Source: Candidatus Gastranaerophilales bacterium (GTDB lineage Bacteria; Cyanobacteriota; Vampirovibrionia; Gastranaerophilales; UBA9971). From it: DNA of 41,351 bases. The position numbers were made by a program, and so were the translations under genes. Numbering within the stretch: the first letter of the stretch is position 1; each line of letters opens with the position of its first letter. The notes under the pieces are model-generated. The model was not told the DNA's origin. It made no database searches and worked only from the letters and a program-made list of their open reading frames with translations. The stretch is from assembly GCA_028278605.1 (NCBI GenBank), contig JANQEB010000012.1:1-41351 (forward strand), in the 5' to 3' direction. Of this stretch, positions 15,681 to 38,138 are shown in pieces.

Positions 15681-15681
15681 C

Positions 15682-16896: not shown

Positions 16897-16913
16897 AATA
16901 GAAAGGTAAAAAA

Positions 16914-18611
16914 ATGACATCAAGCATTGATCATGAAAACGACATTAATGAAGACAAGATCGATATTCGCTTTGACCCTTTTACAGAATCGGATGACAGT
17001 GTTGCTATAACTGGCGAATCACATGTTATACCAGGTGCAAGCCCTTATTATATCCAATTAAATGAAGTGCCAAAGGAAGACACACCATCTCTTACAGCTA
17101 TTCGAAAGATAGGGCAGCTAGATGAAGACCTTGACGATTCTGAAACTGGTGTTGATGTAGTGCGTGGTGCAGACTGGGCTGTTGATGATGTTTTTGCAAT
17201 TGATAGCGAAAAGATGCAGGTAACAAATGTTGTTAGCAACACTTTAACCGTTACACGTGGATATGACAGCACGACTCCTGCTGCGCACAATCAATATGAA
17301 AATGTTGAGACTGGCACATTATCTGATGATGGTTCAAATGTAAGAGCACAAGATGATACAAAAGACTTTGTTGATGAAGGTGTTAAAGAAGGTGATATAT
17401 TCGAGAACACAACAAATAGTCAAACAGCTACTATTACTGGTATTAGAACAACCACAAATAAAAATGATACACTATGCTTTTCTACTGGCACTGCTACTTC
17501 AAACGATAATGGTGATTCATATGTTGTAAAACGGCCTAGACTTTTAATTGATGATAGTGATTTTACAGAGGTATTTACCGCACCTTCAGCCGGTGAATAT
17601 GAAGTACATTATGGTACTGCTGATGTTCCTTACAAGCGTGGTTTAATCCGCTTCCATGAAGATGATAAAGATAAAACTATGCAATGTGATTACACTAAAA
17701 CAGGGCACTATAATTGGGCTGAGTTTATAAATGATATTCAAGATGCTCTTAGAAGTCGTTTTTATGGTTATGATTTAAGACCTGAAATTATAACAAATGA
17801 GCATTTGCAAGATAATATAATAGAGCATGATCAGATGTCAAATAATGCTATTCATCAAGCAGAGCTTTATACTACAACTGCTGAAGTAAACACAAGTTCA
17901 TCTAATAATTTAACTTTGACAGGTGGTACATACATTTTTTATCCACAAGTGAAAACACAAAATACCGGTGCCATTACATTTGATTCACGACTAGCTAATT
18001 ATGCTAGCAATCCACCTGTTTCATATGTTTCTAATGTTTATTTATCTGCTAGCTCTGGATTGGCATATGCTCAAGCAAGGTACGTAAGGTCGTCAGGTCA
18101 TATAAATTGGTATTATCTTTTAAGAGATGTAAAAACTAAAAAGATTATAGCTTCATCAATTGCTAAAGATCATCCATGTTATGGCAATGGTGGCAAGCCC
18201 GAGCTAATGCAGCATCCTTTTTTAAGTGTCTATACTGTAAATAATAAGCAATACATTGGTGATGACATAAATATTATAGAGGTTGAAATTCTTGTACACA
18301 ATCTTAGTGATGAAATGTATATTTATTGTGTTGATGAATCTGTTATAGCTGATAATTTGATACCAGATAAATCAATACTTGAAATTCTTAGTAGTAATTT
18401 TATTTTGGATGATAATGATCAACCTGAATGGCCTAAGGACGAAGTTATTGTAGGTTTGCCCAGACATGCTATAAATGAAAATGGTGAAAAAGAAGTTATT
18501 GAGGATTGGACAAAGGAATATTATCAAGGTAGAAACTTGTTGATAGAACCAATAAAAAGGGAAATCATTCAACCTAGCCATATTAAAACAATTGGTATAA
18601 AAGAAAGGTAG
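16914..18611 (+). CDS. Putative receptor-binding protein / tail fibre
   Basis: 565 aa, last large structural gene, Asp/Thr/Asn-rich. Confidence 0.4.
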   Translation: MTSSIDHENDINEDKIDIRFDPFTESDDSVAITGESHVIPGASPYYIQLNEVPKEDTPSLTAIRKIGQLDEDLDDSETGVDVVRGADWAVDDVFAIDSEKMQVTNVVSNTLTVTRGYDSTTPAAHNQYENVETGTLSDDGSNVRAQDDTKDFVDEGVKEGDIFENTTNSQTATITGIRTTTNKNDTLCFSTGTATSNDNGDSYVVKRPRLLIDDSDFTEVFTAPSAGEYEVHYGTADVPYKRGLIRFHEDDKDKTMQCDYTKTGHYNWAEFINDIQDALRSRFYGYDLRPEIITNEHLQDNIIEHDQMSNNAIHQAELYTTTAEVNTSSSNNLTLTGGTYIFYPQVKTQNTGAITFDSRLANYASNPPVSYVSNVYLSASSGLAYAQARYVRSSGHINWYYLLRDVKTKKIIASSIAKDHPCYGNGGKPELMQHPFLSVYTVNNKQYIGDDINIIEVEILVHNLSDEMYIYCVDESVIADNLIPDKSILEILSSNFILDDNDQPEWPKDEVIVGLPRHAINENGEKEVIEDWTKEYYQGRNLLIEPIKREIIQPSHIKTIGIKER

Positions 18612-18619
18612 GTAAAAAA

Positions 18620-19069
18620 ATGATAAAGCCAATAAAACTTTTTAGACTAGAAAGAGATGGTTATGCTACATTTGGTTCGTTGATTATTGAAAACAAATTA
18701 ATTTGTAATACCCTAGAGCTTCCCTGGTTAAATAATATACCGTTTAAATCCTGTGTGCCCATTGGATGTTATAAGCTGGCTATACGTACAAAGTGGAAGC
18801 ATTCAGATGATTATGGACACACGTTTGAATTGAAAGGTGAAGGTGTAAAAGACCGGCCTGGATGTTTGATTCATCCTGCTAATTGGCCCTATCAACTGCA
18901 TGGATGTATAGCACCTGGTCATGCTATTGGTGACTTATCTGGTAAGCGTGCAATCAAAGACAGTCGGAATGCATTCTTTAAAGTCATTAATGCTATTAAA
19001 GAAATACCATTTGAAACTATTGGTGGTAATGTAACCAACATCCCTTTCGTAATTACAGATCATAGTTAA
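18620..19069 (+). CDS. DUF5675-like protein, candidate cell-wall hydrolase (lysin position)
   Basis: 'ATFGSLII...CNTLELPW.NN...SCVPIGCY' and 'GCLIHPANW...LHGCIAPG' match my recollection of DUF5675. It is the last gene of the late block. Confidence 0.45.
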   Translation: MIKPIKLFRLERDGYATFGSLIIENKLICNTLELPWLNNIPFKSCVPIGCYKLAIRTKWKHSDDYGHTFELKGEGVKDRPGCLIHPANWPYQLHGCIAPGHAIGDLSGKRAIKDSRNAFFKVINAIKEIPFETIGGNVTNIPFVITDHS

Positions 19070-19087
19070 CTATATAGTACGATATAA
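19070..19087. promoter_or_regulatory. 18-bp motif, AGTACG class (CTATATAGTACGATATAA)
   Basis: 17 of 18 match. Lies immediately after the stop of the last late gene. Confidence 0.75.
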
Positions 19088-19092
19088 AAAAG

Positions 19093-19130
19093 TAGCATTC
19101 AGAAAAAAATAAAGGATGCTATCTTTTTTT
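19093..19130 (+). terminator. Intrinsic terminator ending the late operon
   Basis: Stem 19093-19100 'tagcattc' with 19114-19121 'ggatgcta', 13-nt A-rich loop, then 'tcttttttt'. Confidence 0.7.
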
Positions 19131-19131
19131 C

Positions 19132-19162
19132 TTGACATCTAATTAATTGTGTGCACAATTAA
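19132..19162 (+). promoter_or_regulatory. Sigma70-like early promoter with an overlapping 20-bp palindromic operator
   Basis: 'ttgaca' at 19132-19137. Palindrome 'ttaattgtg tg cacaattaa' at 19143-19162 covers the -10 region. Confidence 0.55.
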
Positions 19163-19204
19163 AATCACGTTAACAAAAAAAACAGATGACAGCAAACAGA
19201 CAAC

Positions 19205-19222
19205 TTAGATAGTACGATATAA
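19205..19222. promoter_or_regulatory. 18-bp motif, AGTACG class (TTAGATAGTACGATATAA)
   Basis: 17 of 18 match. Ends 4 nt before ATG 19227, which has no SD. Confidence 0.75.
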
Positions 19223-19226
19223 AAAA

Positions 19227-19430
19227 ATGCCAAGAAGAAAACAAAGTGAAAAAAAATATGATGATAGGTTTAATATCAGAACTTATAAAACTTTTAAAGA
19301 CCAGGTAAGAGAAGCAGCGGAAAAAGAAGGTCTTTCCGTTTCAGGGTTTATTACAAATGTTTTACATATGGCATTAGATGTAGAAATAAAAAAGGCTACA
19401 GCTAAAAAGAAGGCAAAGGTAGTTCATTGA
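19227..19430 (+). CDS. Ribbon-helix-helix (CopG/Arc-like) transcriptional regulator
   Basis: Beta strand 'RFNIRT' followed by two helices, 'KTFKDQVREAAEKEG' and 'SVSGFITNVLHMAL'. First gene after the promoter/operator. Confidence 0.65.
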   Translation: MPRRKQSEKKYDDRFNIRTYKTFKDQVREAAEKEGLSVSGFITNVLHMALDVEIKKATAKKKAKVVH

Positions 19431-19451
19431 TAACAAGGACATCGGGCACGG

Positions 19452-20444
19452 ATGACAAAGAAGATAAAAACTTGTGATTTTAGAATCACTAATCATAGCA
19501 GAAAGTGTGACCATTATATTGAAGGTAAAATAGATGGTCTAGGCAATGAGCTTGAAGCAGGGTTTTGCAGATTGCCAAAAGAATTTAGATGTATTGAATC
19601 CTTAAAACATCACCTTCCCAGGGTTAGCCATTCATCAAGAAAATCTTTTATTCAATGCAGGATGAAGTATTATTACAACCAGATCGAAGGTCGTGTATTG
19701 TTGCCACACAGGCAAACAGATGCTATTAAAGCAGGTGCGATATGGGATAAGTTTCTTGAACTAAAACATGAAGGCAAGCCGACTAAAGAAACCATTCATA
19801 AATTATTTGTCAAATATAAAGTAAGTCCTGTTCTTGAAGCCAAACTAACCGCAATCATAAAGGCATACATCACACTTGAAATAGAACACAATGAACCGAA
19901 CCTGGTGAACTGCCAGCATGAATTTGTATATCCTATTTATGATGTAATTACTTATGGGAAAATTGATCGTGCATATATTGAAAGTTTTACAGAATCCAAA
20001 TTAACCACAAACCCTGACTTTCATAGAAAACTTCATTATCTTCAGGCACAGCTATCTACATATTTTTTGTCAAATGAAAATTATAAAAGCTGTATAGTTG
20101 AGATAGTTAAAATGCATAAAGGCAAACCAAAGGCTAACGAGTCTGTTGAAAGTTTTCAGAAGAGATTATACCATAGCTATATAGCCAGACCTAAAAGCGT
20201 TTTTTTAGAATACAAAGAAGAAACTAAAACATTTGGGTATAAGTTCTGGCGTACTGAATTTGATTTGCCACAAATTTTAAGGACATATGAAATTGTAAAC
20301 CGTGACATATCAAGAGCTATTAAAAATAATGAATGGTATAGAAATGATTTAGCATGTCATGTACCTACTGATTGTGAGTATTTGCATAGGTGTGATACTG
20401 GTAGTTTTAGTAAAATGCTGTATGGGTATAAAGATAAACATTAA
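19452..20444 (+). CDS. PD-(D/E)XK nuclease, Cas4/RecB-like, with Cys cluster
   Basis: 'GKIDRAYIESFTESKLT' gives the D...E.K motif. C-terminal 'CHVPTDCEYLHRC' plus N-terminal Cys residues. Confidence 0.6.
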   Translation: MTKKIKTCDFRITNHSRKCDHYIEGKIDGLGNELEAGFCRLPKEFRCIESLKHHLPRVSHSSRKSFIQCRMKYYYNQIEGRVLLPHRQTDAIKAGAIWDKFLELKHEGKPTKETIHKLFVKYKVSPVLEAKLTAIIKAYITLEIEHNEPNLVNCQHEFVYPIYDVITYGKIDRAYIESFTESKLTTNPDFHRKLHYLQAQLSTYFLSNENYKSCIVEIVKMHKGKPKANESVESFQKRLYHSYIARPKSVFLEYKEETKTFGYKFWRTEFDLPQILRTYEIVNRDISRAIKNNEWYRNDLACHVPTDCEYLHRCDTGSFSKMLYGYKDKH

Positions 20445-20459
20445 TAAAGAGGTAAAAAC

Positions 20460-20717
20460 ATGGATTTAATTTTAAAGTTAAACGATAGGGAAAAACAAAT
20501 AATTAAAAATTTTATATCAAAAGAACTTGAATATACTTTTTCACTGTCAGCAAAAGTTTGTTTTATACCATCCCAGGTTAATAAAGCTTCTTCAAAATCT
20601 TCAGAATCTTCAAGGGCTAGAGAAGACCTTGAGTATAAAGAGATGTTTGAATATATAGATAGTCTTGTTGGCAAGGCTTATGTTTTTGAAAAAAAAATTT
20701 ATGGTATCAAAACATAG
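20460..20717 (+). CDS. Small hypothetical protein carrying an in-frame 102-bp insert that contains the tape-measure antisense segment
   Basis: RBS 'aaagagg'. Residues 'FSLSAKVCFIPSQVNKASS' are encoded by the reverse complement of tape-measure codons. Confidence 0.45.
   Translation: MDLILKLNDREKQIIKNFISKELEYTFSLSAKVCFIPSQVNKASSKSSESSRAREDLEYKEMFEYIDSLVGKAYVFEKKIYGIKT
20540..20596 (-). repeat. Perfect 57-bp inverted copy of tape measure segment 14193..14249
   Basis: 57 of 57 bases identical to the reverse complement. Flanked by imperfect direct repeats 'cttgaatata' (20526) and 'cttgagtata' (20628), 102 bp apart. Confidence 0.95.
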
Positions 20718-20752
20718 AACAAGTTGGTGGTGTAATTAAAATAAAGGAATAA

Positions 20753-21550
20753 GTGACTATGGACGTACTAACCTTAAAAGATTTTTCCTCAGATGGTGTA
20801 ATGATATTTTTGTATGGTGAAACAAACGTAGGTAAGTCAACCAGTATATTACAATCGGCGCCTGACCCTATTTTTTATGCAATGGGAGAATTGAGAAATC
20901 CAAAGAAAGTACTTGAAGCTGTTAACAGACCAGGTTTAAAAATTAGATTTGGTCACTATAAAAATTGGCTTGACTTTATGGACTTCTTGGCACAACCAGA
21001 AAAACTTAATCCCTACAAATCCCTTATTATCGATAGCATGACTCAATTTATGGGATTGCTATCGATTGAGATCGAAAATGAAACCTTCCAAGCTTTAGGC
21101 AAAAAGAAACAAGTAAAGAAAACTTTATCACGGCAAACAAAAAAAGATTATTCAGGGTGGGGCGGTCTTGCCAGTCAAACACTTAGACTAACAAAACTGC
21201 TTGGCAAATTATCGCAGATACACGGTAAGATAATCATTTGTACAGCATTAGAGACAGAGCGTCCTAAGTGGGATTTAGAGCTTGCAGCAGCACCTAAGTT
21301 GAGTGGACGTGATTATGCTGAATCGATGCCTGAGAATTTTGATCTTATCGGGCGTGTAACTTCAAGATATAAGAAATGCGTCAATGAAGATGGCTGTATA
21401 ATTCCTGATGAATACAGAATAGTTTATCCACCCATGGTAAGCTTTGAGTGTGACGATCCTGATAGAAAGTTCATGGCTAAATATACTGGTGGTGGTGACA
21501 AAAGGAAGGGACCGTTAAATATTTCAAAGATATTAGAAAGTAAGAAGTAA
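20753..21550 (+). CDS. RecA-fold AAA ATPase (Sak4-like recombination ATPase)
   Basis: Walker A 'GETNVGKST' and Walker B-like 'LIIDSM'. ATG 20759 is the more likely start. Confidence 0.6.
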   Translation: MTMDVLTLKDFSSDGVMIFLYGETNVGKSTSILQSAPDPIFYAMGELRNPKKVLEAVNRPGLKIRFGHYKNWLDFMDFLAQPEKLNPYKSLIIDSMTQFMGLLSIEIENETFQALGKKKQVKKTLSRQTKKDYSGWGGLASQTLRLTKLLGKLSQIHGKIIICTALETERPKWDLELAAAPKLSGRDYAESMPENFDLIGRVTSRYKKCVNEDGCIIPDEYRIVYPPMVSFECDDPDRKFMAKYTGGGDKRKGPLNISKILESKK

Positions 21551-21662
21551 GAAACTTGAAAATCCAAAATGTCTAGAAGTAGTGTATTATTTTCTAATTT
21601 TATAAGTCGATAAGTATAAAAGCAAATATTTTTAATGTAAAAAATTTTATAAGGATAAGAAA

Positions 21663-22214
21663 GTGTCAGAAAAAATCTTAAACGCATTTAATAAAATCAG
21701 AGCTTATAATATTTTACGGAACAGAAATAACATAGCGGTATCAAGTCCAAACTTCTATACTAAATTATGGATACTTGGCAAGTATACCTGCGTAACTGAT
21801 GGTGCGTTATTTTTACGCTGGCCTGAAATATTAATCAAAGAACAAGGTTTTAAACTTCCAGTAGATCAATTAAAAACGGTTAAGTTTAATAAGCTTTTGA
21901 ATGCATCTGATAATGATAAGATAAGAACAGACCTGGAAGCATTTAAAATTTTCAAGCAAGAACATATATGCAGCCATAAGTCAAACAAAGACAAGTGTAA
22001 AATATGTTATGGTACAGGCATATCACATAAAAAACATTCTACATGGCAAATAGGTGAATGGCTGTTTGATGCTCAATACATATATTTATTATTGCGGTAT
22101 TTGAAAGATGTAACATTTTATGATGTGAACAAAATATGTATAGCTTCAAATTCAATAGCTTTTACATTTAATGGTGTAGGGCAAGGTATATTAATGAGGT
22201 TAAAAGATGAATAA
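21663..22214 (+). CDS. Hypothetical protein
   Basis: GTG start with SD 'aagga'. Contains 'CKICYGTG'. Confidence 0.5.
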   Translation: MSEKILNAFNKIRAYNILRNRNNIAVSSPNFYTKLWILGKYTCVTDGALFLRWPEILIKEQGFKLPVDQLKTVKFNKLLNASDNDKIRTDLEAFKIFKQEHICSHKSNKDKCKICYGTGISHKKHSTWQIGEWLFDAQYIYLLLRYLKDVTFYDVNKICIASNSIAFTFNGVGQGILMRLKDE

Positions 22215-22216
22215 CA

Positions 22217-22408
22217 ATGAAGGACTGGTATATAAAAATAGACAAAAACAATTGCCCGTACAAGCCTATGAAAGCGGTATGCACAAACAAAGACAATAAT
22301 AAATTAGGTATATGCACTTTTGATTTATGTACTGAAAAGATAATTAAAAAAAATAAACGTGGACAACTTAGACAACTATCATTTTTAGACAAGGACAATA
22401 AACCATGA
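22217..22408 (+). CDS. Hypothetical small Cys-containing protein
   Basis: 63 aa, tightly packed between neighbouring genes. Confidence 0.45.
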   Translation: MKDWYIKIDKNNCPYKPMKAVCTNKDNNKLGICTFDLCTEKIIKKNKRGQLRQLSFLDKDNKP

Positions 22409-23067
22409 GAACAGCAAAAAGAGTTTTAGCATTTGATCTTGAAACCATAGCAGATAAATCAATCATAGACTATTTACCTGAACCTAAACCAAAAGCAAAT
22501 CTAAAAGATACAGCCAAGATAGAAGCTGACATTGAAGCTAAAAAAGAAGCACAGATAAAAAAACTTGGCTTATCTCCCTGGACAGGTCGCATATGCTGTT
22601 TTGGTTATGCCTGGAAAGAAGGCGGTGAAATATCAACAAGACACCTTATGCTCAAAGAAGAAACTGATGAAGAAGAGCAGCAGTTAATATATATCATCTG
22701 GCATATGATAAATAGCTTTGATGTCTTCATAACTTTTAATGGCAATGGTTTTGATGTACCTTTTTTAAAAGGTCGATCAGTAAGACACAGAATGAAACAG
22801 ACTGTAAATATATCAATGGCTAAATATCGTGTAACCAATCACCTTGATGTCAAAGCAGTTTTGTCAAACTGGCAACCATATGAACCAGGTACACTTGATT
22901 TTTATAGTCAAATACTTTTGAACAAAACAAAGACTGAAGGCATTGATGGTTCAATGGTTCAAGAATTTTGGGACAAGGGCAAGTATAAAGAAATAGGCAA
23001 ATATTGTGAAGATGATTGCCGGTTAACTTTTGAACTTGGATTACTGACAAAAAAATATTACCTTTAG
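22405..23067 (+). CDS. 3'-5' exonuclease related to the PolB exonuclease domain (RNase H fold)
   Basis: ExoI 'FDLET', ExoII 'FNGNGFDVPFL', ExoIII-like 'YCEDDCRLTFEL'. Confidence 0.6.
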   Translation: MRTAKRVLAFDLETIADKSIIDYLPEPKPKANLKDTAKIEADIEAKKEAQIKKLGLSPWTGRICCFGYAWKEGGEISTRHLMLKEETDEEEQQLIYIIWHMINSFDVFITFNGNGFDVPFLKGRSVRHRMKQTVNISMAKYRVTNHLDVKAVLSNWQPYEPGTLDFYSQILLNKTKTEGIDGSMVQEFWDKGKYKEIGKYCEDDCRLTFELGLLTKKYYL

Positions 23068-23078
23068 AATTTATAATT

Positions 23079-23096
23079 TTATATCGTACTATATAA
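23079..23096. promoter_or_regulatory. 18-bp motif, CGTACT class (TTATATCGTACTATATAA)
   Basis: Exact. Followed by an A-run, RBS and ATG 23111. Confidence 0.8.
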
Positions 23097-23110
23097 AAAA
23101 AGAGGATAAC

Positions 23111-23389
23111 ATGAATCAAAAGACAAGAATAAACCGAAAGTCGAAAAAGAAAAGATTTATTTCATCACCAACAAGTAAGCCTATGGAATTAACTGTTCAA
23201 GAATTTATGGACCTTGAAAACAGGTCTTGTGAAGCATGTGGACATGAATATTTTAAAAAGCGCACTATTGCAAAATTGTTACCCATGACACATCCTTCAA
23301 ATAATACTGGTGAAGCAATACCATTTACACTGGAAGTATATATTTGTGATAAGTGTCATGCTAAACAGGAAAAATTAAAAGTAGTATAA
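23111..23389 (+). CDS. Hypothetical zinc-ribbon protein
   Basis: CxxC ... CxxC pairs ('CEACGH', 'CDKCH'). RBS 'agagga'. Confidence 0.5.
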   Translation: MNQKTRINRKSKKKRFISSPTSKPMELTVQEFMDLENRSCEACGHEYFKKRTIAKLLPMTHPSNNTGEAIPFTLEVYICDKCHAKQEKLKVV

Positions 23390-23414
23390 ACCAATAAAAA
23401 AAAGGTGGTGCTGA

Positions 23415-23612
23415 ATGGATAATCAAGAAAAACAATTTCAAAGAGTTGTTTTAAAAGGTCTACTATCATGTATGCTTGCTTCCGTTACAATTTTGTTAGA
23501 TGAAGACTATGATGAAGAGACATCAGAGATAAGTAAGAATGATGTAGCAGAACAGATAACAATGTCAGCAGCAGAAATAAAAGCATATGACAAAAAGTAT
23601 TTAAACGATTAA
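23415..23612 (+). CDS. Hypothetical small protein
   Basis: RBS 'aaggtggtg'. Confidence 0.5.
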   Translation: MDNQEKQFQRVVLKGLLSCMLASVTILLDEDYDEETSEISKNDVAEQITMSAAEIKAYDKKYLND

Positions 23613-23638
23613 TAATAAAGAAAAGGAATTAACTGACA

Positions 23639-24892
23639 ATGGCAAAGGAAAAATCAAATATCAAAATTGAAAGCATACATGTAACTGGCTTTGAAGGTGT
23701 ATTAGATATTGAAATAATACCGACTCAAAGTATGGTCACATTATCAGGTGCTAATGGTGCAGGTAAATCAAGTATACTTCATGCTATTTCTATTCTTTTT
23801 TTTGGTGGCAGCTTTGAAGAGCCTATTATTCATAAGGGTAAAGACCGTGCGGAGATTAATACTGACCTGGGAGAATTTAGTGTAACCTGGTATAAAACTA
23901 AAAAGAGTCCACCTAAAATTAAGATAGAACGTAAAGACGGTCAGCCGATTGAAAACACCAGACGTGCCTTAAATGATCTTATAGGTGGTAAAGTATTGGC
24001 TGACCCTATGGCATTAGTTAATGAAAAAGATTTATCAAAACAGCGTCAAAAGTTTCTTGAAGCCTTAAACATTAATACTTCTGATATTGACAAAAAGATA
24101 AAGAATGAAATTGAAAATAGGAAGAGTACAAAAAAAGAGATTAAAGCCCTTGAAGCAAAAATATCTGCTATCGATTTTAACCCCAGTATAACAGAAAGAG
24201 TTGTCATACTTGAACTGACAGATAGCCTTAATTCTGCAAACCTTCACAATCAATCATTAGAGATGAAACAAAAAGCACAGAAGCGTAAACGTAAAGCATA
24301 TGACCAAAAAAAAGCTGAAGTTGAAGCATTGCAGCAAGAGATGAAAGATTTAAAGTCTGAAGGGCTAAAGTTGAAATCTGAAATTGAAGGTTTTGAGATG
24401 ATCGATACTGAAAAGATAGAACAGCAAATTAAAGACGCTGAAACTATTAACGAACAGTATAGGGCAAACCAAGAGCACATAGCATTACTTAAACAAGTAG
24501 CTGCTGAAAAAAGCAAGCTAAAAGATGTTGAAGTGTTGATATCAAACTTAAAAACAGACCGTGATAATCTTTTATCATCAGCCAGTTTGCCAGACATAGG
24601 GATAACTATTGATGATGAAGCAGTGCTATACAATGGTTTACCATTGGTTAAAGCCAGTACTGGCGAAAAAATAAAGGTATGCTTTCAATACTTGTCAACC
24701 ATATCTTCAAACTTTAAAGTATTATGGATTGAAGACGGTGATAAGCTGGATAAAAAAACACGCAAGTTAATCATAAAAATAGCTGAAGAGAATAACATCC
24801 AAGTATGGAATGAGCGTGTGGATGAATCTGGAAAGATAGGTATTTACATTGAAGAGGGCCAGGTGGCTAAAAATAATTACATAGAAGAGTAA
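23639..24892 (+). CDS. SMC/RecN/SbcC-like AAA ATPase with coiled-coil insert
   Basis: Walker A 'GANGAGKSS', long charged coiled coil, C-terminal 'VLWIEDGDKLD'. Confidence 0.6.
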   Translation: MAKEKSNIKIESIHVTGFEGVLDIEIIPTQSMVTLSGANGAGKSSILHAISILFFGGSFEEPIIHKGKDRAEINTDLGEFSVTWYKTKKSPPKIKIERKDGQPIENTRRALNDLIGGKVLADPMALVNEKDLSKQRQKFLEALNINTSDIDKKIKNEIENRKSTKKEIKALEAKISAIDFNPSITERVVILELTDSLNSANLHNQSLEMKQKAQKRKRKAYDQKKAEVEALQQEMKDLKSEGLKLKSEIEGFEMIDTEKIEQQIKDAETINEQYRANQEHIALLKQVAAEKSKLKDVEVLISNLKTDRDNLLSSASLPDIGITIDDEAVLYNGLPLVKASTGEKIKVCFQYLSTISSNFKVLWIEDGDKLDKKTRKLIIKIAEENNIQVWNERVDESGKIGIYIEEGQVAKNNYIEE

Positions 24893-24934
24893 ACAGTAGC
24901 TAGGGATGAATAAACAATAACTAAAGGTGACGAC

Positions 24935-25171
24935 ATGAAAGATGATTTATCAAAAGAAGATTTGGAAATAATACATATTAATTATGGGAGGATTCTAGCT
25001 TTTAAAGATTATGAAAAAGAATTAAGAGATAAAGCTTGTGATTATTTTGCAAGGAACAAAGATGATCTTGCAGTCCTTTACAGAGATGAAGCAAACAATC
25101 TCAAGAAAAGAATAGAAAAGTTAATAGATAATCTTACAAATCTTTACAACATAAGGGACATGTTGCTTTAG
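24935..25171 (+). CDS. Hypothetical small protein
   Basis: RBS 'aaaggtga'. Confidence 0.5.
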   Translation: MKDDLSKEDLEIIHINYGRILAFKDYEKELRDKACDYFARNKDDLAVLYRDEANNLKKRIEKLIDNLTNLYNIRDMLL

Positions 25172-25324
25172 CTTTTAACCTTTAACTTTTAACCCTTAGA
25201 CAAAAAGGTGGTGATGCCTGGGACTAGTAAATAATTTTATATCAAACATGAATTAACTTTTATTATCAAACAAAAACTTTAACTAGAAAATTAATTAAAC
25301 TTAAAACAAAAAAGGATTAAAAAC

Positions 25325-25861
25325 ATGAAACTTAATACAGGAAAAGACACACTTGATCTTGGTTTCCCGGTCCCTGAAGCTGGTGTATCAAACATGCAGA
25401 TAATGGATGTTGACTACTCAGAAAATGAAGAGACCGGAGCGTTAAACCTGAAACTAAAAATGGTTATTCTTGAAAATGTTGAAGGACCGGCAGACAATGT
25501 AAACATGCAGCCAATGTACAATATCAATTTGGTTGATGGTGAAGGCAAACCGAATGCATTTGGTGAAAAAACAATTTGTAGTCTTTTAACGGTATGTGAC
25601 TTGGCTGATGCGTTTGAAAAGAAATTTCCAGATGATACGGCCTTTACCGATGAGAAGTTTATCAGTGCCTTGCAAATGAAGCTCCCCAAAAATGTTGTAC
25701 AGTTCAAACATGACCAGGGAGAATTCAATAATAAACCTTCAATGGAATGGTTACAGTTAAGCAGGGTAGCCAAGAACAAAGCAGCCGGTAAAAAGGCAGC
25801 AGCCAAGAAGGAAAATACAAAACCGGCTGAAGATGCAGTGGCCGATGACGATGACTGGTAA
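25325..25861 (+). CDS. Putative ssDNA-binding protein (DUF669-like) with acidic C-terminal tail
   Basis: C-terminal 'AEDAVADDDDW' (acidic tail ending in an aromatic residue). Located in the recombination module. Confidence 0.4.
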   Translation: MKLNTGKDTLDLGFPVPEAGVSNMQIMDVDYSENEETGALNLKLKMVILENVEGPADNVNMQPMYNINLVDGEGKPNAFGEKTICSLLTVCDLADAFEKKFPDDTAFTDEKFISALQMKLPKNVVQFKHDQGEFNNKPSMEWLQLSRVAKNKAAGKKAAAKKENTKPAEDAVADDDDW

Positions 25862-25897
25862 ACTGTCACAACAACTGTAATTAAACTAAATAAACGG

Positions 25898-25922
25898 GGC
25901 CGGTGAAAGTCCGGCCTTGTTT
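25898..25922 (+). terminator. Intrinsic terminator
   Basis: 'ggccgg' tgaaagt 'ccggcc' followed by 'ttgttt'. Confidence 0.7.
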
Positions 25923-25936
25923 AGAAGGAAATTATT

Positions 25937-26155
25937 ATGAAGTATAAAAACAGATGTGAAGGATGGATAAGAAAAGGCGGTGCTTTTACTTTGGGGCCGG
26001 TTGAGTGGACTCAATGTGAAAATGAAAGTATCGTAATGATTAAATTCAAACAAGGTGATGAAGACGTAACCACTTTACCAGCATGTAAAGGATGTTGGCA
26101 AAGATGTATTGATTCAAATGATATAAAAATACTTTCAGCAAAACCAATAGTATGA
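25937..26155 (+). CDS. Hypothetical small Cys-rich protein
   Basis: 72 aa, RBS 'gaagga'. Confidence 0.5.
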   Translation: MKYKNRCEGWIRKGGAFTLGPVEWTQCENESIVMIKFKQGDEDVTTLPACKGCWQRCIDSNDIKILSAKPIV

Positions 26156-26448
26156 ATCCAAAAAGACAAATAGACAGACTTAGTGACAAAGATTTTAAAG
26201 CAATAGAAGATGTTTTATATTTTGATGTTAAATACAACACACAATCTTGCCCTTTTATAGACCTTCAAAGAAATAAGCATTGTAATAAATGTATTTATAT
26301 CTTCCCTGCAATAAGATTATGGATTACTGATTTTTCGTGCAGCATTAGAGACCAGGCTTGTCCGTGCTTTCATTATTCAAAAAAATATATTCGTAAAGTA
26401 ATTAGAAAGATATTAAAAGACTATGAGAATAAAAAACAGAGCAGCTAA
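26152..26448 (+). CDS. Hypothetical Cys-rich protein
   Basis: ATGA overlap with the upstream gene. Confidence 0.5.
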   Translation: MNPKRQIDRLSDKDFKAIEDVLYFDVKYNTQSCPFIDLQRNKHCNKCIYIFPAIRLWITDFSCSIRDQACPCFHYSKKYIRKVIRKILKDYENKKQSS

Positions 26449-26956
26449 AAGCGTACAGCAGGACAATAAGCCATACAAATTTAAACCTTGTATATTTCCT
26501 GATGACTTCCATTTAATAGTAGACACACAAGAGAAGAAACCATTATTTACAAGAACACCAGGTTTGACGCTGACTCGTAAAACATTAAAAGATGGTGACT
26601 ACAGTATTAAAGGGTTTGAAAATTGTTTTTTTATTGAACGCAAAATGACTTCAGATTTTTATACATACATAGGAGTCGAAAGATCAAAGACAATTAAAAA
26701 AGTAGAAAGAATGTCACAAGCTATACAAGATCATGATGGTTTTGCAGCACTTGTGATTGAAGCAGATATATATGAATTATTCAGTTTGCAGTATTATACA
26801 GAGATGACACCTGAACATGCAGCCGGTTTTATAACTTCATTAAATTTAAAATGCAACATCCACACATTTATAAGCAATGATAGAAAGCTTCTTGAAAAGT
26901 GGATACTAGACAGAGCTATTAAGTTTTATAAGTTAAAACGTGGTTTAACAAAGTAA
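26423..26956 (+). CDS. ERCC4-type (XPF/Mus81-like) nuclease, possible junction resolvase
   Basis: 'IVDTQEKKP', 'GDYSI' and 'FFIERKMTSD' give the GDY...ERKxxxD motif. Confidence 0.55.
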   Translation: MRIKNRAAKSVQQDNKPYKFKPCIFPDDFHLIVDTQEKKPLFTRTPGLTLTRKTLKDGDYSIKGFENCFFIERKMTSDFYTYIGVERSKTIKKVERMSQAIQDHDGFAALVIEADIYELFSLQYYTEMTPEHAAGFITSLNLKCNIHTFISNDRKLLEKWILDRAIKFYKLKRGLTK

Positions 26957-26979
26957 CATTTAAATAAGGGTGGTGCTTT

Positions 26980-27582
26980 ATGAAAATAAAAGGCAAGGGT
27001 AAGGAGAACATGAATCTGCGTGAATCCTGGGGTAAACGGATAGCACGTGATAACATGCATAATGTACCGATCATCACCAGTTTACCGAAAGACGCTGAAA
27101 AAGCTGATGTCAGAGTCCGTGTCATTGGAAGACTAGCGCATATGGCAAAAACGATTTGTCAATGTAATCGGCAGCGGTTTAAAAATGTTGGTGATGTATA
27201 TCGTGCTGGTCTTTATTTTTCAATCATCATTTTATTTGAAATGTATGGTGGTGAACCGGATAGTAAGGATACTGCGTATGGACATGAAGTGTATGATATT
27301 TTAAAGAAGAATGAAAAATATCGTGCCATGTCAACGTTATTAGACGACATCGTAACCTCAGCAAATGATGTTATTAAAGCTGCTGATGATAGCATAATAT
27401 CGATGAAGAGCATGAGACAAGAGCTTGAAGAGTTGATTGAAGAGATGCCAGGGAACGTACAAAAAGCTGCTGAAAACCGGATTAAAAGATTATTGGATGG
27501 TAGTAAAATGTCAGACATCAGGGATAATCAATTTCGTGGTGGAGACCGAAAAAGTAAAGTATACAAGAGGAACAATCGTTAG
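26980..27582 (+). CDS. Hypothetical protein adjacent to the 8-bp repeat array (candidate DNA-binding or initiator protein, speculative)
   Basis: 200 aa, RBS 'aagggtggtg'. The array starts 10 bp after its stop. Confidence 0.4.
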   Translation: MKIKGKGKENMNLRESWGKRIARDNMHNVPIITSLPKDAEKADVRVRVIGRLAHMAKTICQCNRQRFKNVGDVYRAGLYFSIIILFEMYGGEPDSKDTAYGHEVYDILKKNEKYRAMSTLLDDIVTSANDVIKAADDSIISMKSMRQELEELIEEMPGNVQKAAENRIKRLLDGSKMSDIRDNQFRGGDRKSKVYKRNNR

Positions 27583-27591
27583 AAACAATCG

Positions 27592-27723
27592 TTGATATAT
27601 TGACATATTGATACTTTGATATTTTGATTTATTGATATTATGATACATTGATACTTTGATTTTAATATAGGGATAATTGATAATTGTCATATTGATATTA
27701 TGATGTGTTGATACTTTGATGCC
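27592..27723 (+). repeat. Array of TTGATAnn-type octamers with an exact 8-bp period (iteron/operator-like)
   Basis: TTGAT/TTGAC/ATGAT cores start at 27592, 27600, 27608, 27616, 27624, 27632, 27640, 27648 and 27656, then at 27677, 27692, 27700, 27708 and 27716. A 29-bp block at 27632-27660 recurs at 27692-27720. Confidence 0.9.
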
Positions 27724-27768
27724 GATCAACCATCCCTAATAGTAATAGTATAAGTATAATTATAAAGG

Positions 27769-28008
27769 ATGTCAGAAATGAATGTTTTAAGATTTATAAT
27801 AACATCAGCTAAATTGATAATTGCATTGGTTTATATGGTAGTTTCCTTTATTCTTATCGTACCATTTACTTTTACGGGGATATACTTTTTTAAGATGGAA
27901 ATGAAGCAGCTTGAAAAAATTTGTGCTTATCAATCTGCAATCTTTCATGTCATCCTGGGAAGCAAACTAAAAGGAATTAAAAATGAAGATCAAAAACTAC
28001 AAGATTAA
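27769..28008 (+). CDS. Small membrane protein (two predicted TM helices)
   Basis: Hydrophobic stretches 'LIIALVYMVVSFILIVPFTFTGIYFF'. Confidence 0.5.
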   Translation: MSEMNVLRFIITSAKLIIALVYMVVSFILIVPFTFTGIYFFKMEMKQLEKICAYQSAIFHVILGSKLKGIKNEDQKLQD

Positions 28009-28177
28009 TCCGGACCCTAGTACAATTAAAATGCCAAGAGGTAAACATAAAGGTGAATATATTTGTGATCTGCCTACTGACTATTTATTATGGATAGCTG
28101 AAAATTGGTCAGAGAAATCAGACCAAGATAAATCGATATGTATGGCTGCTGATATTGAATATCAGGATAGGGTTTAA
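27983..28177 (+). CDS. DUF3820-like protein
   Basis: 'MPRGKHKGEYICDLPTDYLLWIAENW' matches the conserved FGKYKG...YLxW motif. Confidence 0.55.
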   Translation: MKIKNYKINPDPSTIKMPRGKHKGEYICDLPTDYLLWIAENWSEKSDQDKSICMAADIEYQDRV

Positions 28178-28298
28178 TCAACAGAATTGGAGACAAGGCT
28201 ATCTTCAAGATATAATCAGGTGCTCTAAAATAAAGTGGCTGAAAATCGCACCTGAGAGCGCTAATGTTACAGATATATAAAAAGGAATATATATTATT

Positions 28299-28454
28299 AT
28301 GGCACAAAAATATCAGACATTAAAGGTTACTGGTATGTTTCCGCAAAAACATTGTCCAACTTGTGGAGAATATAGAAATTATGAATTCACAGGCAATGTT
28401 ATGTTTGCTTATTTTTCATGTTTGGGATTAGTTGAGAGCGATTTTACGGTTTAG
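28299..28454 (+). CDS. Small hypothetical protein (51 aa, not in the track)
   Basis: ATG 28299 follows 'aaaagga'. Contains 'CPTCG'. Manually translated to TAG 28452-28454. Confidence 0.35.
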   Translation: MAQKYQTLKVTGMFPQKHCPTCGEYRNYEFTGNVMFAYFSCLGLVESDFTV

Positions 28455-28504
28455 AGACCTTACAAAATAAAAATAAAAAAAGTGAAAATAATTGAAAAAA
28501 TGTC

Positions 28505-28533
28505 TTGACATTTAATCAAAGATGGTTTAGTAT
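28505..28533 (+). promoter_or_regulatory. Near-consensus sigma70-like early promoter (TTGACA, 17-nt spacer, TAGTAT) with A-rich UP-like region
   Basis: 'ttgaca' at 28505-28510 and 'tagtat' at 28528-28533, preceded by 'aaaataaaaataaaaaaa'. Confidence 0.65.
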
Positions 28534-28589
28534 TTAAATCAAGATGACAGAAAATACTAACCATAATAAAAAGGAAAAGGAGACATTAA

Positions 28590-30140: not shown

Positions 30141-30143
30141 ATT

Positions 30144-30161
30144 TTATATCGTACTATATAA
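30144..30161. promoter_or_regulatory. 18-bp motif, CGTACT class (TTATATCGTACTATATAA)
   Basis: Exact. Followed by an A-run, RBS and ATG 30179. Confidence 0.8.
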
Positions 30162-30178
30162 AAAAAAGGAGAACAAAA

Positions 30179-30641: not shown

Positions 30642-30839
30642 ATGAAATCAAGAGAACAATATAAAAACAGAACATATACTAAAATTATTCTTGAAGACGG
30701 CCTAACCATTATTCAATGCAATGACTGCAATGCTTATGCTGAAAAACCTGGTGGCATAAAACATCATGATACATGTCAACCTGGTGAAGCTGCATATTGG
30801 CGTGACTTTTATCGTGAAGCAAGCTTGGAGTATGAGTGA
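30642..30839 (+). CDS. Hypothetical small protein
   Basis: 65 aa. Its stop overlaps the next start. Confidence 0.5.
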   Translation: MKSREQYKNRTYTKIILEDGLTIIQCNDCNAYAEKPGGIKHHDTCQPGEAAYWRDFYREASLEYE

Positions 30840-31033
30840 TGTCGAGGGGTGGAAAGCGAAAAGGCGCAGGTAGACCAAGGGGAAAAGTTATTCCGGAAAG
30901 TTTAAGACGTAAAAAGTTTTCAATTAGAATACCAGCGTATCTAATAAGACTGTTAAAAATGGCAAGTATAAATAGACAGCTCTCACAAGGCAAAATAGTT
31001 GAAAGGGCTTTAAAAAAATATTTAGGACTATAA
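30836..31033 (+). CDS. Ribbon-helix-helix (CopG-like) DNA-binding protein with basic N-terminal arm
   Basis: Strand 'KFSIRIP' and helices 'AYLIRLLKMAS' and 'SQGKIVERALKKYL'. Confidence 0.6.
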   Translation: MMSRGGKRKGAGRPRGKVIPESLRRKKFSIRIPAYLIRLLKMASINRQLSQGKIVERALKKYLGL

Positions 31034-32976: not shown

Positions 32977-34701
32977 ATGAAGTTGCAAACAGGCGATACA
33001 GAATTTAGCTTAATAGAAGAACAAGAGCAAGCAAATTTAGAATCAGAATTAATGATCAAGCGTGCACGTGATGCATTTAAAAGGTTTAGAAACTGTGATT
33101 TTAGAGTCAATCAATATGAAACAGTAGAATTTGTAAACGAGTCTAAAAAACCTATCACTATAATTCAAGCACCTACTGGCTTTGGCAAGTCATTGGTAGG
33201 TGTAGTATCCGGTGCTTTATTTGGTCAATTCACATACCTGGTATCATCCAAACAGCTCCAAGATCAATTGGAAAAAGATTTCCCTGAAGTCGAGATCATG
33301 AAAGGTCGCAACAACTATGCATGTACCTTAATGCCTGGTAAAATGGCTGATGCTTGTACACATTCAAAAAAGATGCCATGCCCGTTTAGAAAGAAAATGT
33401 GTCCGTATGATAGAAAAAAGAAAAAGGTATTAAAAGCTAAATACCGTGTACTCAATTATCATTATTTTTTAACTGAAGCAAATTACATAGGTGGTTTTAG
33501 CGGAAATCAAATTCTAATCTGTGATGAAGCTGATTTACTCGAGTCTATTTTAACAGACTTTGTAAACCTTCAGATATCAGGAAAACTTATGCGTGAATTT
33601 AAAATAGAACCACCTAAATTTAAAACTGCTGAAGCTAAAGAAGGCGTTAAAAACTGGAAGCATTGGGCTGAAGTTCAAGTGGCACCAAAACTAGTAGATA
33701 GAATGGCAGAACTTGAACAGCACATTGACCCGTGGAATGATGAAAATACAAACAGTAAAGCTACTAAAGAACAAAACCGGCTTAAGGGCATACTGACAAA
33801 AATAAAAATGTTTATTGAAAACGTTGATGAAACATGGATAATGGAAGAAAGTTTTTATACAAACAAAGGTGCAAATACAAAAGGCTTTAAACAATTACCT
33901 GCCTTAATTTTCAAACCTATTTGGTTAACACCACAGCTGTCAGAGATGTATTTTTTTAAACATACATTAAAAACAGTTTTGATGTCAGCCACCTTTCCAC
34001 CTATACGTGTTATGACAAAATTGCTAGGTCGTGAATTTTCAGCTTTTGATTATCCTGAATTTGACAATGATAAATTTGGTATACCTACTTCATTCCCGAT
34101 AGAAAACAGACCTATCATATTAAGACCAGTAGCAGACATGTCATTTAAGACTTTCAACAAAGAGCTACCTATATTGATAGATGAAATAATCCAAATTCTT
34201 GAAGAGCATAAAGGACAAAGAGGTATTATTCATTCGGTCTCATATAAACTTAATCGACACATAATGAATATCGGTCAGCAGCGGTTAATGACTCATGACT
34301 CCACAAACAGAAACCAGGTGATAGAAAATTTTAAAAATGCATTCCGTGAAGATACAGTACTGGTCAGCCCATCTATTCAGCGTGGTGTAGATTTGCCAGG
34401 CAAAGAGTGTGAGTTTGTTATACATGCCAAAGTGCCATACAAATCATTGGCAGACAAGCTTACAAGGCGCAGAGTCTATAGTTCTAAGGTGGGCAATTTA
34501 TGGTATACTTCACTTACAACTCAAGAGATTGTGCAAGGCTGCGGACGTGGTAACAGAAAGAAAAGTGATTACTGTGTTAACTATCTATTAGACAAACAAT
34601 TCTTAAGAATGCTTGGACTGGGCAAGAAGAAATATAAATCACCTGTTAATATGAAAAAGCTTTATCCGAATTACTGGTATGAAGCACTTGAGAGGTATTA
34701 G
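32977..34701 (+). CDS. DinG/XPD (Rad3)-family Fe-S DNA helicase
   Basis: Walker A 'APTGFGKS', 'CDEAD' box, four-Cys cluster region 'CTLMPGKMADACTHSKKMPCPFRKKMCPY', motif VI 'QGCGRGNR'. Confidence 0.7.
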   Translation: MKLQTGDTEFSLIEEQEQANLESELMIKRARDAFKRFRNCDFRVNQYETVEFVNESKKPITIIQAPTGFGKSLVGVVSGALFGQFTYLVSSKQLQDQLEKDFPEVEIMKGRNNYACTLMPGKMADACTHSKKMPCPFRKKMCPYDRKKKKVLKAKYRVLNYHYFLTEANYIGGFSGNQILICDEADLLESILTDFVNLQISGKLMREFKIEPPKFKTAEAKEGVKNWKHWAEVQVAPKLVDRMAELEQHIDPWNDENTNSKATKEQNRLKGILTKIKMFIENVDETWIMEESFYTNKGANTKGFKQLPALIFKPIWLTPQLSEMYFFKHTLKTVLMSATFPPIRVMTKLLGREFSAFDYPEFDNDKFGIPTSFPIENRPIILRPVADMSFKTFNKELPILIDEIIQILEEHKGQRGIIHSVSYKLNRHIMNIGQQRLMTHDSTNRNQVIENFKNAFREDTVLVSPSIQRGVDLPGKECEFVIHAKVPYKSLADKLTRRRVYSSKVGNLWYTSLTTQEIVQGCGRGNRKKSDYCVNYLLDKQFLRMLGLGKKKYKSPVNMKKLYPNYWYEALERY

Positions 34702-37345: not shown

Positions 37346-37864
37346 ATGAGATACAAAATACCAGGTTTAATTATATTCGATTTAAAAAACGAAGGTGGCA
37401 CAGTTATTTATGATGTTGGACAAAAGACAAAGTACACAGATGACTTTCCCTTACTGGTTCAAGGCTATGCACGTGATGGATTAAACAACGAGCAAATAGC
37501 TGAAAAACTTGGAATAGGTGAAACATCTTTTTATAAATATTTAAATCTATATCCGAAAATGGCAAAGGCATTACGTGAAGGGCGTACACCTGTTGACGTA
37601 AAAGTTGAGAATGCCATGCTACAAATAGCACTTGGCTATGACTACAGAGAAGAAAAGCAAGAAGGTATATTTGACAAAGATGGTAATATGCTTGATATCA
37701 CAAAGCGTACAATCACTGAAAAGCATATCCCACCTAATTTTAATGCTGGCAAGTTCTGGCTGACCAATCGTAAACCTGGTAAGTGGACAAAAGATTTTGT
37801 TAATCCATTAGAGTCCGGTGATGTTGAAATAGAAGTATGTGATGTTGATGATATGGAAGATTAG
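37346..37864 (+). CDS. terS: Terminase small subunit
   Basis: HTH 'NNEQIAEKLGIGETSFYKYL' and 'FWLTNRKPGKW'. Lies upstream of the large terminase. Confidence 0.65.
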   Translation: MRYKIPGLIIFDLKNEGGTVIYDVGQKTKYTDDFPLLVQGYARDGLNNEQIAEKLGIGETSFYKYLNLYPKMAKALREGRTPVDVKVENAMLQIALGYDYREEKQEGIFDKDGNMLDITKRTITEKHIPPNFNAGKFWLTNRKPGKWTKDFVNPLESGDVEIEVCDVDDMED

Positions 37865-37897
37865 TTTGCAATAAAAACAGGAGAAAATGAATATATA

Positions 37898-38128: not shown

Positions 38129-38138
38129 TACGATATAA
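38121..38138. promoter_or_regulatory. 18-bp motif, AGTACG class (TTATATAGTACGATATAA)
   Basis: Exact. Overlaps the stop at 38126-38128, upstream of terL. Confidence 0.8.

Follow-up and report, generated by a model that had tools for sequence, protein, structure and literature searches.

A conserved array of 8-bp TTGAT repeats beside an unannotated phage gene family, a candidate iteron-type replication origin

The window analysed here, a DNA stretch of 41,351 bp, is a circularly assembled phage genome of ~41,252 bp (~41.25 kb), in which we studied an array of 8-bp TTGAT repeats at 27592–27723. The contig is taken as circular because its two ends (1–99 and 41253–41351) are identical, bases 41253–41351 duplicating 1–99. 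The phage genome has a GC content of 34%, all its convincing genes lie on the plus strand, and a public-run index traces the sequence to coral metagenomes. The array occupies a 186-bp intergenic gap (27583–27768) and begins 9 bp past the stop codon of a plus-strand gene for a 200-amino-acid protein (26980..27582), whose family we named F200. This gene stands at the 3′ end of a plus-strand recombination/replication block (19227 to 27582, Pfam/PHROG scans) that also encodes a ribbon–helix–helix (RHH) protein, a PD-(D/E)XK exonuclease, a Sak4-like AAA_24 protein, a PolB-exonuclease-like protein, an SbcC-like ATPase, a 178-amino-acid acidic-tailed protein and an ERCC4 nuclease. Downstream of the array come ~5 kb of mostly small genes and then a DinG/XPD-like helicase gene (32977–34701). 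These small genes are variable and only the first is membrane-like, in place of the cluster of small membrane proteins described in the original prediction.

The array consists of 14 units with a TTGAT core. Nine contiguous head-to-tail octamers of the form WTGAYnnn run in a single register on the plus strand from 27592 to 27663 (sub-array A), in the order TTGATATA TTGACATA TTGATACT TTGATATT TTGATTTA TTGATATT ATGATACA TTGATACT TTGATTTT, and five further units follow up to 27723. Sub-array A ends in a 13-bp break, AATATAGGGATAA (27664..27676), whose motif ATATAGGG(G)AT is also found in L126, one of the related loci compared below. An isolated unit, TTGATAAT (27677..27684), lies 21 bp past the last unit of sub-array A and is separated by a 7-bp break (TGTCATA) from sub-array B, four contiguous octamers TTGATATT ATGATGTG TTGATACT TTGATGCC (27692..27723). 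The last of these and one inverted unit form a terminal palindrome, TTGAT-GCCG-ATCAA (27716..27729), with the region's only minus-strand TTGAT at 27725. Sub-array B is bracketed by a 14-nt inverted repeat, TAGGGATAATTGAT (27668–27681) and ATCAACCATCCCTA (27725–27738), whose arms are 86% complementary; the TAGGGAT of the 13-bp break belongs to the left arm and pairs with ATCCCTA at 27732–27738. Direct reading and Tandem Repeats Finder both bear out the periodicity first described, nine octamers and then units at 27677, 27692, 27700, 27708 and 27716, and for 27592–27662 the program reported periods of 8 (6.6 copies, score 57), 16 (score 82) and 32 (score 100). The 29-bp composite noted earlier at 27632 and 27692 does recur, but only 26 of its 29 positions are identical, the three in the middle reading ACA in one copy and GTG in the other.

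The array departs strongly from chance and has no counterpart elsewhere in the genome. It holds 11 TTGAT in 140 bp, compared to a maximum of five in any other 140-bp window, and nowhere else in the 41 kb do more than two TTGA[TC] follow one another at 8-bp spacing; from base frequency, ~1.6e-14 runs of nine WTGAY octamers would be expected. Counts per position over the 14 units are T12 T14 G14 A14 T13, while positions 6–8 are variable, and 10 distinct sequences occur among the 14 units. A fixed core with variable spacers is the signature of selection on a recognition core and not of replication slippage. These features, together with a conserved position, agree with the iteron-like character that had been proposed for the array. 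The 72-amino-acid minus-strand open reading frame (ORF) across the repeats (27511..27729) is spurious, as originally suspected, because the units place TGA in all three plus frames and create no minus-strand stops; its translation is low-complexity and repeat-made. In the region, Rfam gave no match below E=0.78 and there was no folding signal (z-score −0.03). No terminator was found between F200 and the array. DnaA boxes (TTATCCACA-like) are absent from the gap, and their genome-wide counts are at or below chance.

The array abuts an AT-rich block, ATCAACCATCCCTAATAGTAATAGTATAAGTATAATTATAAAGG (27725..27768), which extends into the ribosome-binding site of the next gene and is a candidate DNA unwinding element. 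By nearest-neighbour energies, only one other 30-mer of the 41-kb genome is less stable than 27736–27766, and the whole gap ranks third among 180-bp windows for low stability. The block aligns with AATCAAACATCCGTAATAGTAATAAG in L126 and AATCAACCATCCGTAGTAGTTCTAG in a second relative, L135, and similar (TAATAG)n blocks are present in L122, L123, L134 and L120. In two close relatives, direct and inverted arrays stand on either side of the conserved block ATCAAnCATCCnTAATAGTAATA, which in the window contains the unstable 30-mer.

To compare the locus between phages, we assembled 12 loci (114 kb), i.e. the window and 11 further lineages with DNA context, in which the F200 proteins are 24–43% identical to that of the window. 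The recurring order is Sak4, the SSB-like (single-strand-binding-like) protein, ERCC4 and F200, then a noncoding gap or a few unrelated small genes, and the DinG-like helicase. The ERCC4-type nuclease gene (26423..26956 on the plus strand in the window; Pfam ERCC4 E=1.5e-5; relatives 43–47% identical) lies 5′ of F200 in eight of the nine relatives with upstream flank on record, either adjacent or with at most four small genes between. The helicase gene (32977..34701, plus strand) encodes a DinG/XPD-like superfamily 2 (SF2) protein with Helicase_C_2 and DEAD_2 domains (phrog_2488 E=1.3e-79; relatives 39–48% identical), and is found 3′ of F200 in 8 of 11 relatives, directly after the array or after one to four small genes. 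Thus, in the relatives the array lies inside the replication/recombination block, between the F200 and helicase genes, and not at its end, where the original prediction had placed it.

The gap after F200 contains short-repeat clusters in 10 of the 12 lineages. These are strongly 8-bp-periodic in six, mostly with a TTGA(T/C) core, and seven of the nine segments with strong lag-8 identity, in six lineages, begin within ~520 bp of the F200 stop. L126, which is identical in three samples (L126 = L127 = L131), has ~18 direct TTGATGnn/TTGCTGnn units, after which come the block AATCAAACATCCGTAATAGTAATAAG, a promoter match (TTGACA-17-TAGGAT) and, reaching to the ribosome-binding site, some six inverted nnCATCAA units. 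L135 has about nine direct TTGATnnn and five inverted units, AATCAACCATCCGTAGTAG..., TTGACC-17-TATAAA and nine inverted units. In both, where F200 is ~43% identical, the TTGAT core and the 8-bp spacing are kept, and direct and inverted arrays flank the AT-rich block. Of the other relatives with strongly periodic arrays, L120/L121 carry TTGATACA-type units on both sides of a CCCCCT and AT-rich block; L136 has eleven TTGACnnn units starting within the last F200 codons, with three more further on; and L122 has six AAGGTATT units, then GATATTA units, inverted ATACCTTA units and GTAATAGTAATAGTTAATAG. The clusters of four lineages are weaker or spaced differently, i.e. TCTTGACC units, the palindrome CCACTTGGTTCGAACCAAGTGG and CACTATAGTAGTAACTAGTAAATAGTTAATAG immediately 5′ of the helicase gene in L134, two or three TGGATAnn units with the palindrome CCTTGGAACGACCAAGG and TCCCTAATATATATATAG behind them in L123, ~15 CTTGA or TCAAG motifs in both orientations in L132, and three 10-bp units with the core GAAAATAATT in L128. 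The palindromes of L123 (CCTTGGAACGACCAAGG) and L134 (CCACTTGGTTCGAACCAAGTGG) are equivalent to the terminal palindrome of the window. In the plan common to these loci, the array leads to a terminal palindrome or to inverted units, and a C-rich clamp and then an AT-rich block of the (TAATAG)n type precede the next gene. As related phages carry arrays at the equivalent genomic position, with the TTGAT core and the 8-bp register kept, the array is not peculiar to the window, which is the comparison among relatives that the original prediction had called for. We also considered whether the repeat motif changes as F200 diverges, and dropped this idea, as L120 (25% identity) keeps TTGATACA and L136 and L134 use TTGAC.

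Scans of IMG/VR with F200 and three of its relatives gave one locus, identical to L126, and the helicase of the window had no match there. A pattern scan of IMG/VR for five TTGAT at 8-bp spacing returned, in its first 119 matches, identical or near-identical units forming microsatellites of 5–19 units, many in giant-virus bins. No F200 gene lay near these microsatellites, and with their identical units they were rejected as relatives of the array.

The F200 gene, uncharacterised in the original prediction, is no orphan and belongs to a family. Exhaustive HMMER searching of 1.84 billion representative proteins found 62 homologues of ~190–200 amino acids, all metagenomic, the best at 44% identity, whereas word-indexed protein searches gave little besides the query. 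There was no match to F200 in Pfam or PHROG, nor by tblastn against cultured phages. The family alignment (A1) shows conserved IPxxTxxPK, RFKTxSDVxRAAxYIG and LPxxL motifs and a basic GGDRKS tail. The AlphaFold2 model built with an alignment is all-helical (predicted local distance difference test, pLDDT, 86; predicted template modelling score, pTM, 0.73), compared to pLDDT 40 without one, and Foldseek found no match to it in PDB or BFVD. In this monomer model residues 41–49 form a confident extended segment with no partner strand, and residues 41–90 fit the β-α-α pattern of RHH proteins, the strand being VRVRVIGR and helices 1 and 2 LAHMAKTI and DVYRAGLYF..., respectively. Profile alignment (hhalign) of the N-domain with approximate RHH sequences (alignment A6) gave weak matches in the expected register (P=0.16 and 0.034), Pfam RHH_1 matched one of 35 F200-family domain sequences (E=0.003), and no PDB entry matched the N-domain as an RHH. 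With none of these four tests significant, a possible RHH fold of the F200 N-domain is a lead and not a finding.

Besides F200, two small RHH proteins encoded in the genome (19227–19430 and 30836–31033) had been proposed as binders of the array. Both genes are genuine RHH genes. However, the first sits behind its own promoter, which carries a palindromic operator, AATTGTGTGCACAATT, and L126 and L127, whose TTGAT arrays are equivalent, have no homologue of the second nearby; therefore, F200 is the only consistently linked gene of unknown function. The product of 30836–31033 is a 65-amino-acid CopG-type protein with an AT-hook-like N-terminal tail (KRKGAGRPRGK), and a word-indexed search found no homologue of it. 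These two proteins are the less likely readers of the array, while the linkage of F200 to the array in 10 of the 12 lineages makes F200 the strongly favoured candidate among the three. The ORFs scanned contained no further initiator candidate.

Taken together, these data suggest that the array is most likely a conserved cis element that acts as a protein-coated control site. We put the probability that it is more specifically an iteron-type replication origin coated by F200 at roughly 0.45. In this mechanism, F200 would cover the 14 TTGAT units cooperatively and head to tail, with one site per 8 bp. Since an 8-bp step rotates each neighbour by ~274°, the proteins would spiral round the DNA like the complexes of MetJ, ParG or omega. 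The F200 complex would abut and destabilize the easily melted conserved block ATCAACCATCCCTAATAGTAATAGTATAAGTATAAT (27725–27768), and array and block would together serve as the origin of a module composed of Sak4, the SSB-like protein, ERCC4, F200 and the DinG-like helicase, with hand-over to the helicase and the host replisome. Because the repeats also form sigma-70-like promoters, F200 coating would probably control transcription into the downstream genes as well, or the embedded promoters might serve activation. Location fits this reading, the array lying inside a replication/recombination module and beside an easily melted block, and so does its uniqueness in the genome. The array and its statistics, its conservation in relatives, the conserved order of F200, array and helicase and the low duplex stability of the block are direct observations; F200 binding, its cooperativity and initiation at the array are inferred.

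Several points weigh against an F200-coated origin. The Pfam, PHROG and Foldseek searches detected no resemblance of F200 to an initiator or a DNA-binding fold, and its RHH-like N-terminal pattern is not statistically supported. Depth and variants from the public runs are uninformative on initiation, as these contain the phage only as fragmentary low-depth contigs (2–5×), and GC skew is monotonic and uninformative because all genes lie on one strand. Runs of 14–30 contiguous 8-bp units are more typical of RHH operators or centromeres than of known origins, and DinG-like SF2 helicases are, to our knowledge, not known as replicative helicases. With a single inverted unit (27725–27729), the two-sided layout of the relatives is incomplete in the window. 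Two lineages, L133 and L130, carry F200 and no array after it within the DNA fetched, L133 having a 12-bp repeat after its ERCC4 gene. Finally, the TTGA(C/T) core is common to lineages whose F200 is only 24–29% identical and resembles the −35 hexamer TTGACA; therefore, a conserved host factor (sigma) or conserved F200 residues could be the reader.

A bolder version of the origin, which we regard as doubtful, would make F200 the founder of a new class of origin-binding proteins in phages; its N-domain may be RHH-like, and its spiral filament on the iterons would melt the TAATAG-rich block and recruit the DinG/XPD-like SF2 helicase as the replicative or fork-opening helicase. We know of no replicon for which such a pairing of initiator and DinG/XPD-like helicase has been described.

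The strongest alternative, less likely than the origin but clearly ahead of the remaining ones, is that the array is an operator only, on which F200 or another small phage repressor polymerizes in the manner of MetJ, ParG or omega to shut sigma-70-like promoters and time the downstream small genes and helicase operon, with no origin function. A consensus scan of the repeats finds three plus-strand promoter matches between 27616 and 27704, each scoring 10/12 as consensus matches only, i.e. TTGATA-17-TATGAT (27616–27644), TTGATA-18-GATAAT (27648–27677) and TTGATA-16-TATGAT (27677–27704). The TATGAT −10 hexamers come from two ATGAT variant units placed 16–17 bp after a TTGATA, and the embedded promoters may be functional. 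In L126 and L135 the inverted array occupies the interval between a TTGAC(A/C)-17-TAnnAT promoter match and the ribosome-binding site, and relative L134 has a 6 × 10-bp array 5′ of an RHH_5 gene. Contiguous 7–8-bp repeats are, moreover, a hallmark of RHH operators (PMC3130281, PMC4627068), and the β-α-α pattern of the F200 N-terminus, its weak RHH register in hhalign and the single RHH_1 match (E=0.003) point the same way. In contrast, promoter-like matches are not enriched over the surrounding 3.5 kb (24 versus 19 expected from shuffles), and any TTGATA repeat would yield them as an automatic by-product. Other operon boundaries of the genome use a 20-bp quasi-palindrome (TTTATATAGTACGATATAAA, described below) and not TTGAT repeats. 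The regulator gene would lie 5′ of its target, unlike typical autoregulated RHH operons, where the regulator is 3′, and an operator leaves the conserved easily melted block and the two-sided inverted layout of the relatives unexplained. Origin and operator functions are not mutually exclusive.

It is improbable that the array is a bank of −35-like elements in which host sigma reads the TTGA(T/C)A units, giving a very strong early promoter region, or one with several starts, or else a sink for RNA polymerase, with no dedicated phage binder. The TTGAYA core is 0–1 mismatches from the TTGACA consensus, it recurs where F200 is 24–29% identical (TTGACnnn in L136, TTGACC in L134, TTGATACA in L120), and canonical TTGACA promoter matches occur elsewhere in the genome (~1128, 19131 and 28505). 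However, no known promoter requires 14 phased −35 elements, the 8-bp period leaves only two ATGAT-derived hexamers at the proper −10 distance, the inverted arrays of the relatives lack matching −10 elements, and unrelated cores stand at the equivalent place in L122 (AAGGTATT) and L128 (GAAAATAATT).

It is very improbable that the array is a partition centromere serving plasmid-like maintenance under a coat of centromere-binding protein, with parH of plasmid TP228 and parS of mycobacteriophage RedRock as models. Its geometry would be apt, as parH and OF have an 8-bp period with 8–12 boxes (PMC3130281) and RedRock parS eight 8-bp copies (PMC7157519). The centromere suggestion of the original prediction is nevertheless unsupported, because the Pfam and PHROG scans revealed no ParA, ParM or ParB-type gene in the ORFs they covered (~25 ORFs, mostly of the structural module, lie outside the scan). 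The scanned ORFs comprise the replication/recombination neighbours and the largest ORFs of the structural module; among them P-loop proteins are limited to the Sak4-like AAA_24 protein and the SbcC-like ATPase, and there is no integrase or plasmid-replication gene; all genes lie on one strand, and the conserved neighbours are recombination/replication genes.

A non-functional slippage microsatellite or a terminase recognition (pac) array is the weakest explanation, since the core is fixed while the spacers vary: viral contigs commonly contain microsatellites of 8-bp TTGAT repeats in tandem, but here the units are degenerate outside the core, position and core are conserved across proteins 25–43% identical, the three L126-type samples are identical, and the array lies ~10 kb from the terminase genes (37346–39531) and is always linked to replication genes.

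Short tandem repeats coated by protein are familiar from other systems. MetJ binds tandem head-to-tail 8-bp met-boxes, one RHH dimer on each, with contacts between dimers. The tandem 8-bp head-to-tail units are shared with the array, whereas met-boxes are palindromic (AGACGTCT), number 2–5 and are bound in a co-repressor-dependent way; the 14 units here are asymmetric. The likeness to 8-bp RHH arrays that had been drawn for this locus is apt, as contiguous 7–8-bp repeats are present in the window and the sites of ParG in TP228, OF and parH, have the same 8-bp period, formed by a 4-bp ACTC box and a 4-bp AT-rich spacer (PMC3130281). OF and parH hold 8 and 12 degenerate boxes, mostly direct and occasionally inverted, coated cooperatively by one small dimer per box, and the array lies beside the gene of its binder (PMC3130281). 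In contrast to the TTGAT core studied here, the ParG core is ACTC, and ParG is a 76-amino-acid RHH protein that works with the ParF ATPase; in the window no ParA-type gene occurs in the scanned ORFs, the RHH nature of F200 is putative and the context is phage replication/recombination. The omega sites of pSM19035 consist of 6–10 unspaced short repeats, direct or inverted, that overlap −35 regions, with neighbouring dimers spiralling round straight DNA, and their heptad, WATCACW, is similar to TATCAA, the complement of the unit studied here (PMC4627068). Their period is 7 bp compared to 8 here, and omega is a proven RHH protein that also binds centromeres with the delta ATPase in a plasmid copy-control/partition system. 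The parS-L and parS-R sites of mycobacteriophage RedRock are carried by a phage and consist of an 8-bp motif repeated eight times in direct orientation, to which a phage protein binds (PMC7157519), but they flank parA/parB in an extrachromosomal prophage, whereas no par genes occur among the ORFs scanned here.

The closest documented layout is the origin of the Staphylococcus aureus pathogenicity islands (SaPIs), with 6–12 iterons in opposite directions directly 3′ of the rep ORF and an AT-rich centre (PMC9371898). Here too the repeats follow directly after the ORF of the linked protein, with an AT-rich centre and a lineage-specific repeat sequence (PMC9371898), and L126 and L135 have oppositely pointing units on both sides. 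The SaPI binder is, however, the winged-helix domain of a self-loading SF3-type Rep helicase acting on 6–12 penta- or hexanucleotide iterons. F200, by comparison, is a 200-amino-acid helical protein without a matched fold, the helicase is a separate DinG-like SF2 gene, and the units are 8 bp long and number 14–30, with one inverted unit in the window. The lambda ori and its O protein likewise combine iterons, an AT-rich region and a phage-encoded origin binder (F200 being putative here), and nearby transcription may activate the origin (for Stx phages, PMC7466680). The four iterons of lambda are 19 bp long and lie within the O gene, compared to 14 contiguous 8-bp units outside a gene here.

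A tandem short-repeat protein-coating site, whether origin or operator, is an element of a known kind, but in the libraries and papers searched we found no description of this combination of an unannotated family with an unmatched fold, 14–30 contiguous 8-bp units, a conserved TAATAG-rich block and a DinG-like helicase partner. The array gives a first functional handle on the F200 family, whose ~60 members all come from metagenomes and have neither a Pfam or PHROG match nor a structural relative, and defines a conserved replication cassette of uncultured low-GC phages, i.e. Sak4, the SSB-like protein, ERCC4, F200, the array and the DinG-like helicase. If it is an origin, its 8-bp iterons would be unusually dense and it would tie an SF2 DinG-like helicase to origin function; if an operator, it would extend the 8-bp polymerization of MetJ and ParG to a larger and different type of protein. 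Either way, it offers a compact and testable protein–DNA recognition system whose motif varies between lineages.

Among the neighbouring genes, the first one 3′ of the array (27769..28008, plus strand) encodes a hydrophobic protein of 79 amino acids, with its likely true start at the ATG at 27778, after an AAGGA ribosome-binding site. It opens the variable small-gene set between the array and the helicase gene, none of which has homologues in the relatives. Further downstream, 28455–28589 contains a TTGACA-17-TAGTAT promoter match (at 28505) and then two ATCAA (inverted TTGAT) motifs, and can be loosely aligned with the part of L126 and L135 that holds the promoter and the inverted array; therefore, the four small ORFs at 27769–28454 may be an insertion that split an ancestral two-sided array. 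The gap appears to be a hot spot for the insertion of variable small genes. On the other side of the array, the 178-amino-acid protein (25325–25861) has no family match; its acidic tail (...EDAVADDDDW) recalls T7 gp2.5-type single-strand-binding proteins, and it is kept at the equivalent position in the relatives with 23–38% identity.

The structural region comprises the portal gene and the head and tail genes (39590–41125 and 210–19069, plus strand, Pfam/PHROG scans), and the terminase genes lie at 37346–39531 on the plus strand. The large terminase (38221–39531) is ~50% identical to the terminases of Marinitoga and Clostridium phages; no similarity to cultured phages was found at the DNA level. 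The apparent gap before 210 is not real, as the minor-head-protein gene probably starts near 41208 and crosses the junction. The structural operon ends at a terminator-like hairpin (AGCAT..ATGCT, then a T-run) within 19092–19226, after which a TTGACA promoter match with the perfect palindrome AATTGTGTGCACAATT lies just 5′ of the RHH gene 19227–19430; this segment is probably the autoregulated start of the recombination/replication operon.

The 20-bp quasi-palindrome TTTATATAGTACGATATAAA (centre GTAC, one mismatch) occurs at ~10 mostly intergenic sites (2905–2924, 4843–4857, 10366–10380, 19074–19088, 19209–19223, 23078–23097, 30143–30162, 38120–38139, 41148–41162 and 41184–41198), with 14 strand-matches compared to 0.26 expected. 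It resembles an operator for a global regulator of the phage, or else a promoter element specific to the phage, and a one-mismatch copy adjoins the array of L135 (1072–1087).

In the relatives, the array of L134 at 522–612, six 10-bp units (TTTCAATAAC / AGTTAATAAA) just 5′ of a promoter match and the RHH_5 gene (665–823), is a second, independent tandem-repeat site beside an RHH gene in this phage group. In L126, the last codons and stop of the F200 gene are present as a perfect 27-bp tandem duplication (AAGAGCAAAAAGGCGCTGGGTTAACAA ×2, 5565–5618). Variable regions near the cassette also carry defence-type genes, with DarT plus a Macro domain directly after the helicase gene in L134 (6629–7483) and Gad2-like genes in L123 (695–1432) and L133 (6328–7068).

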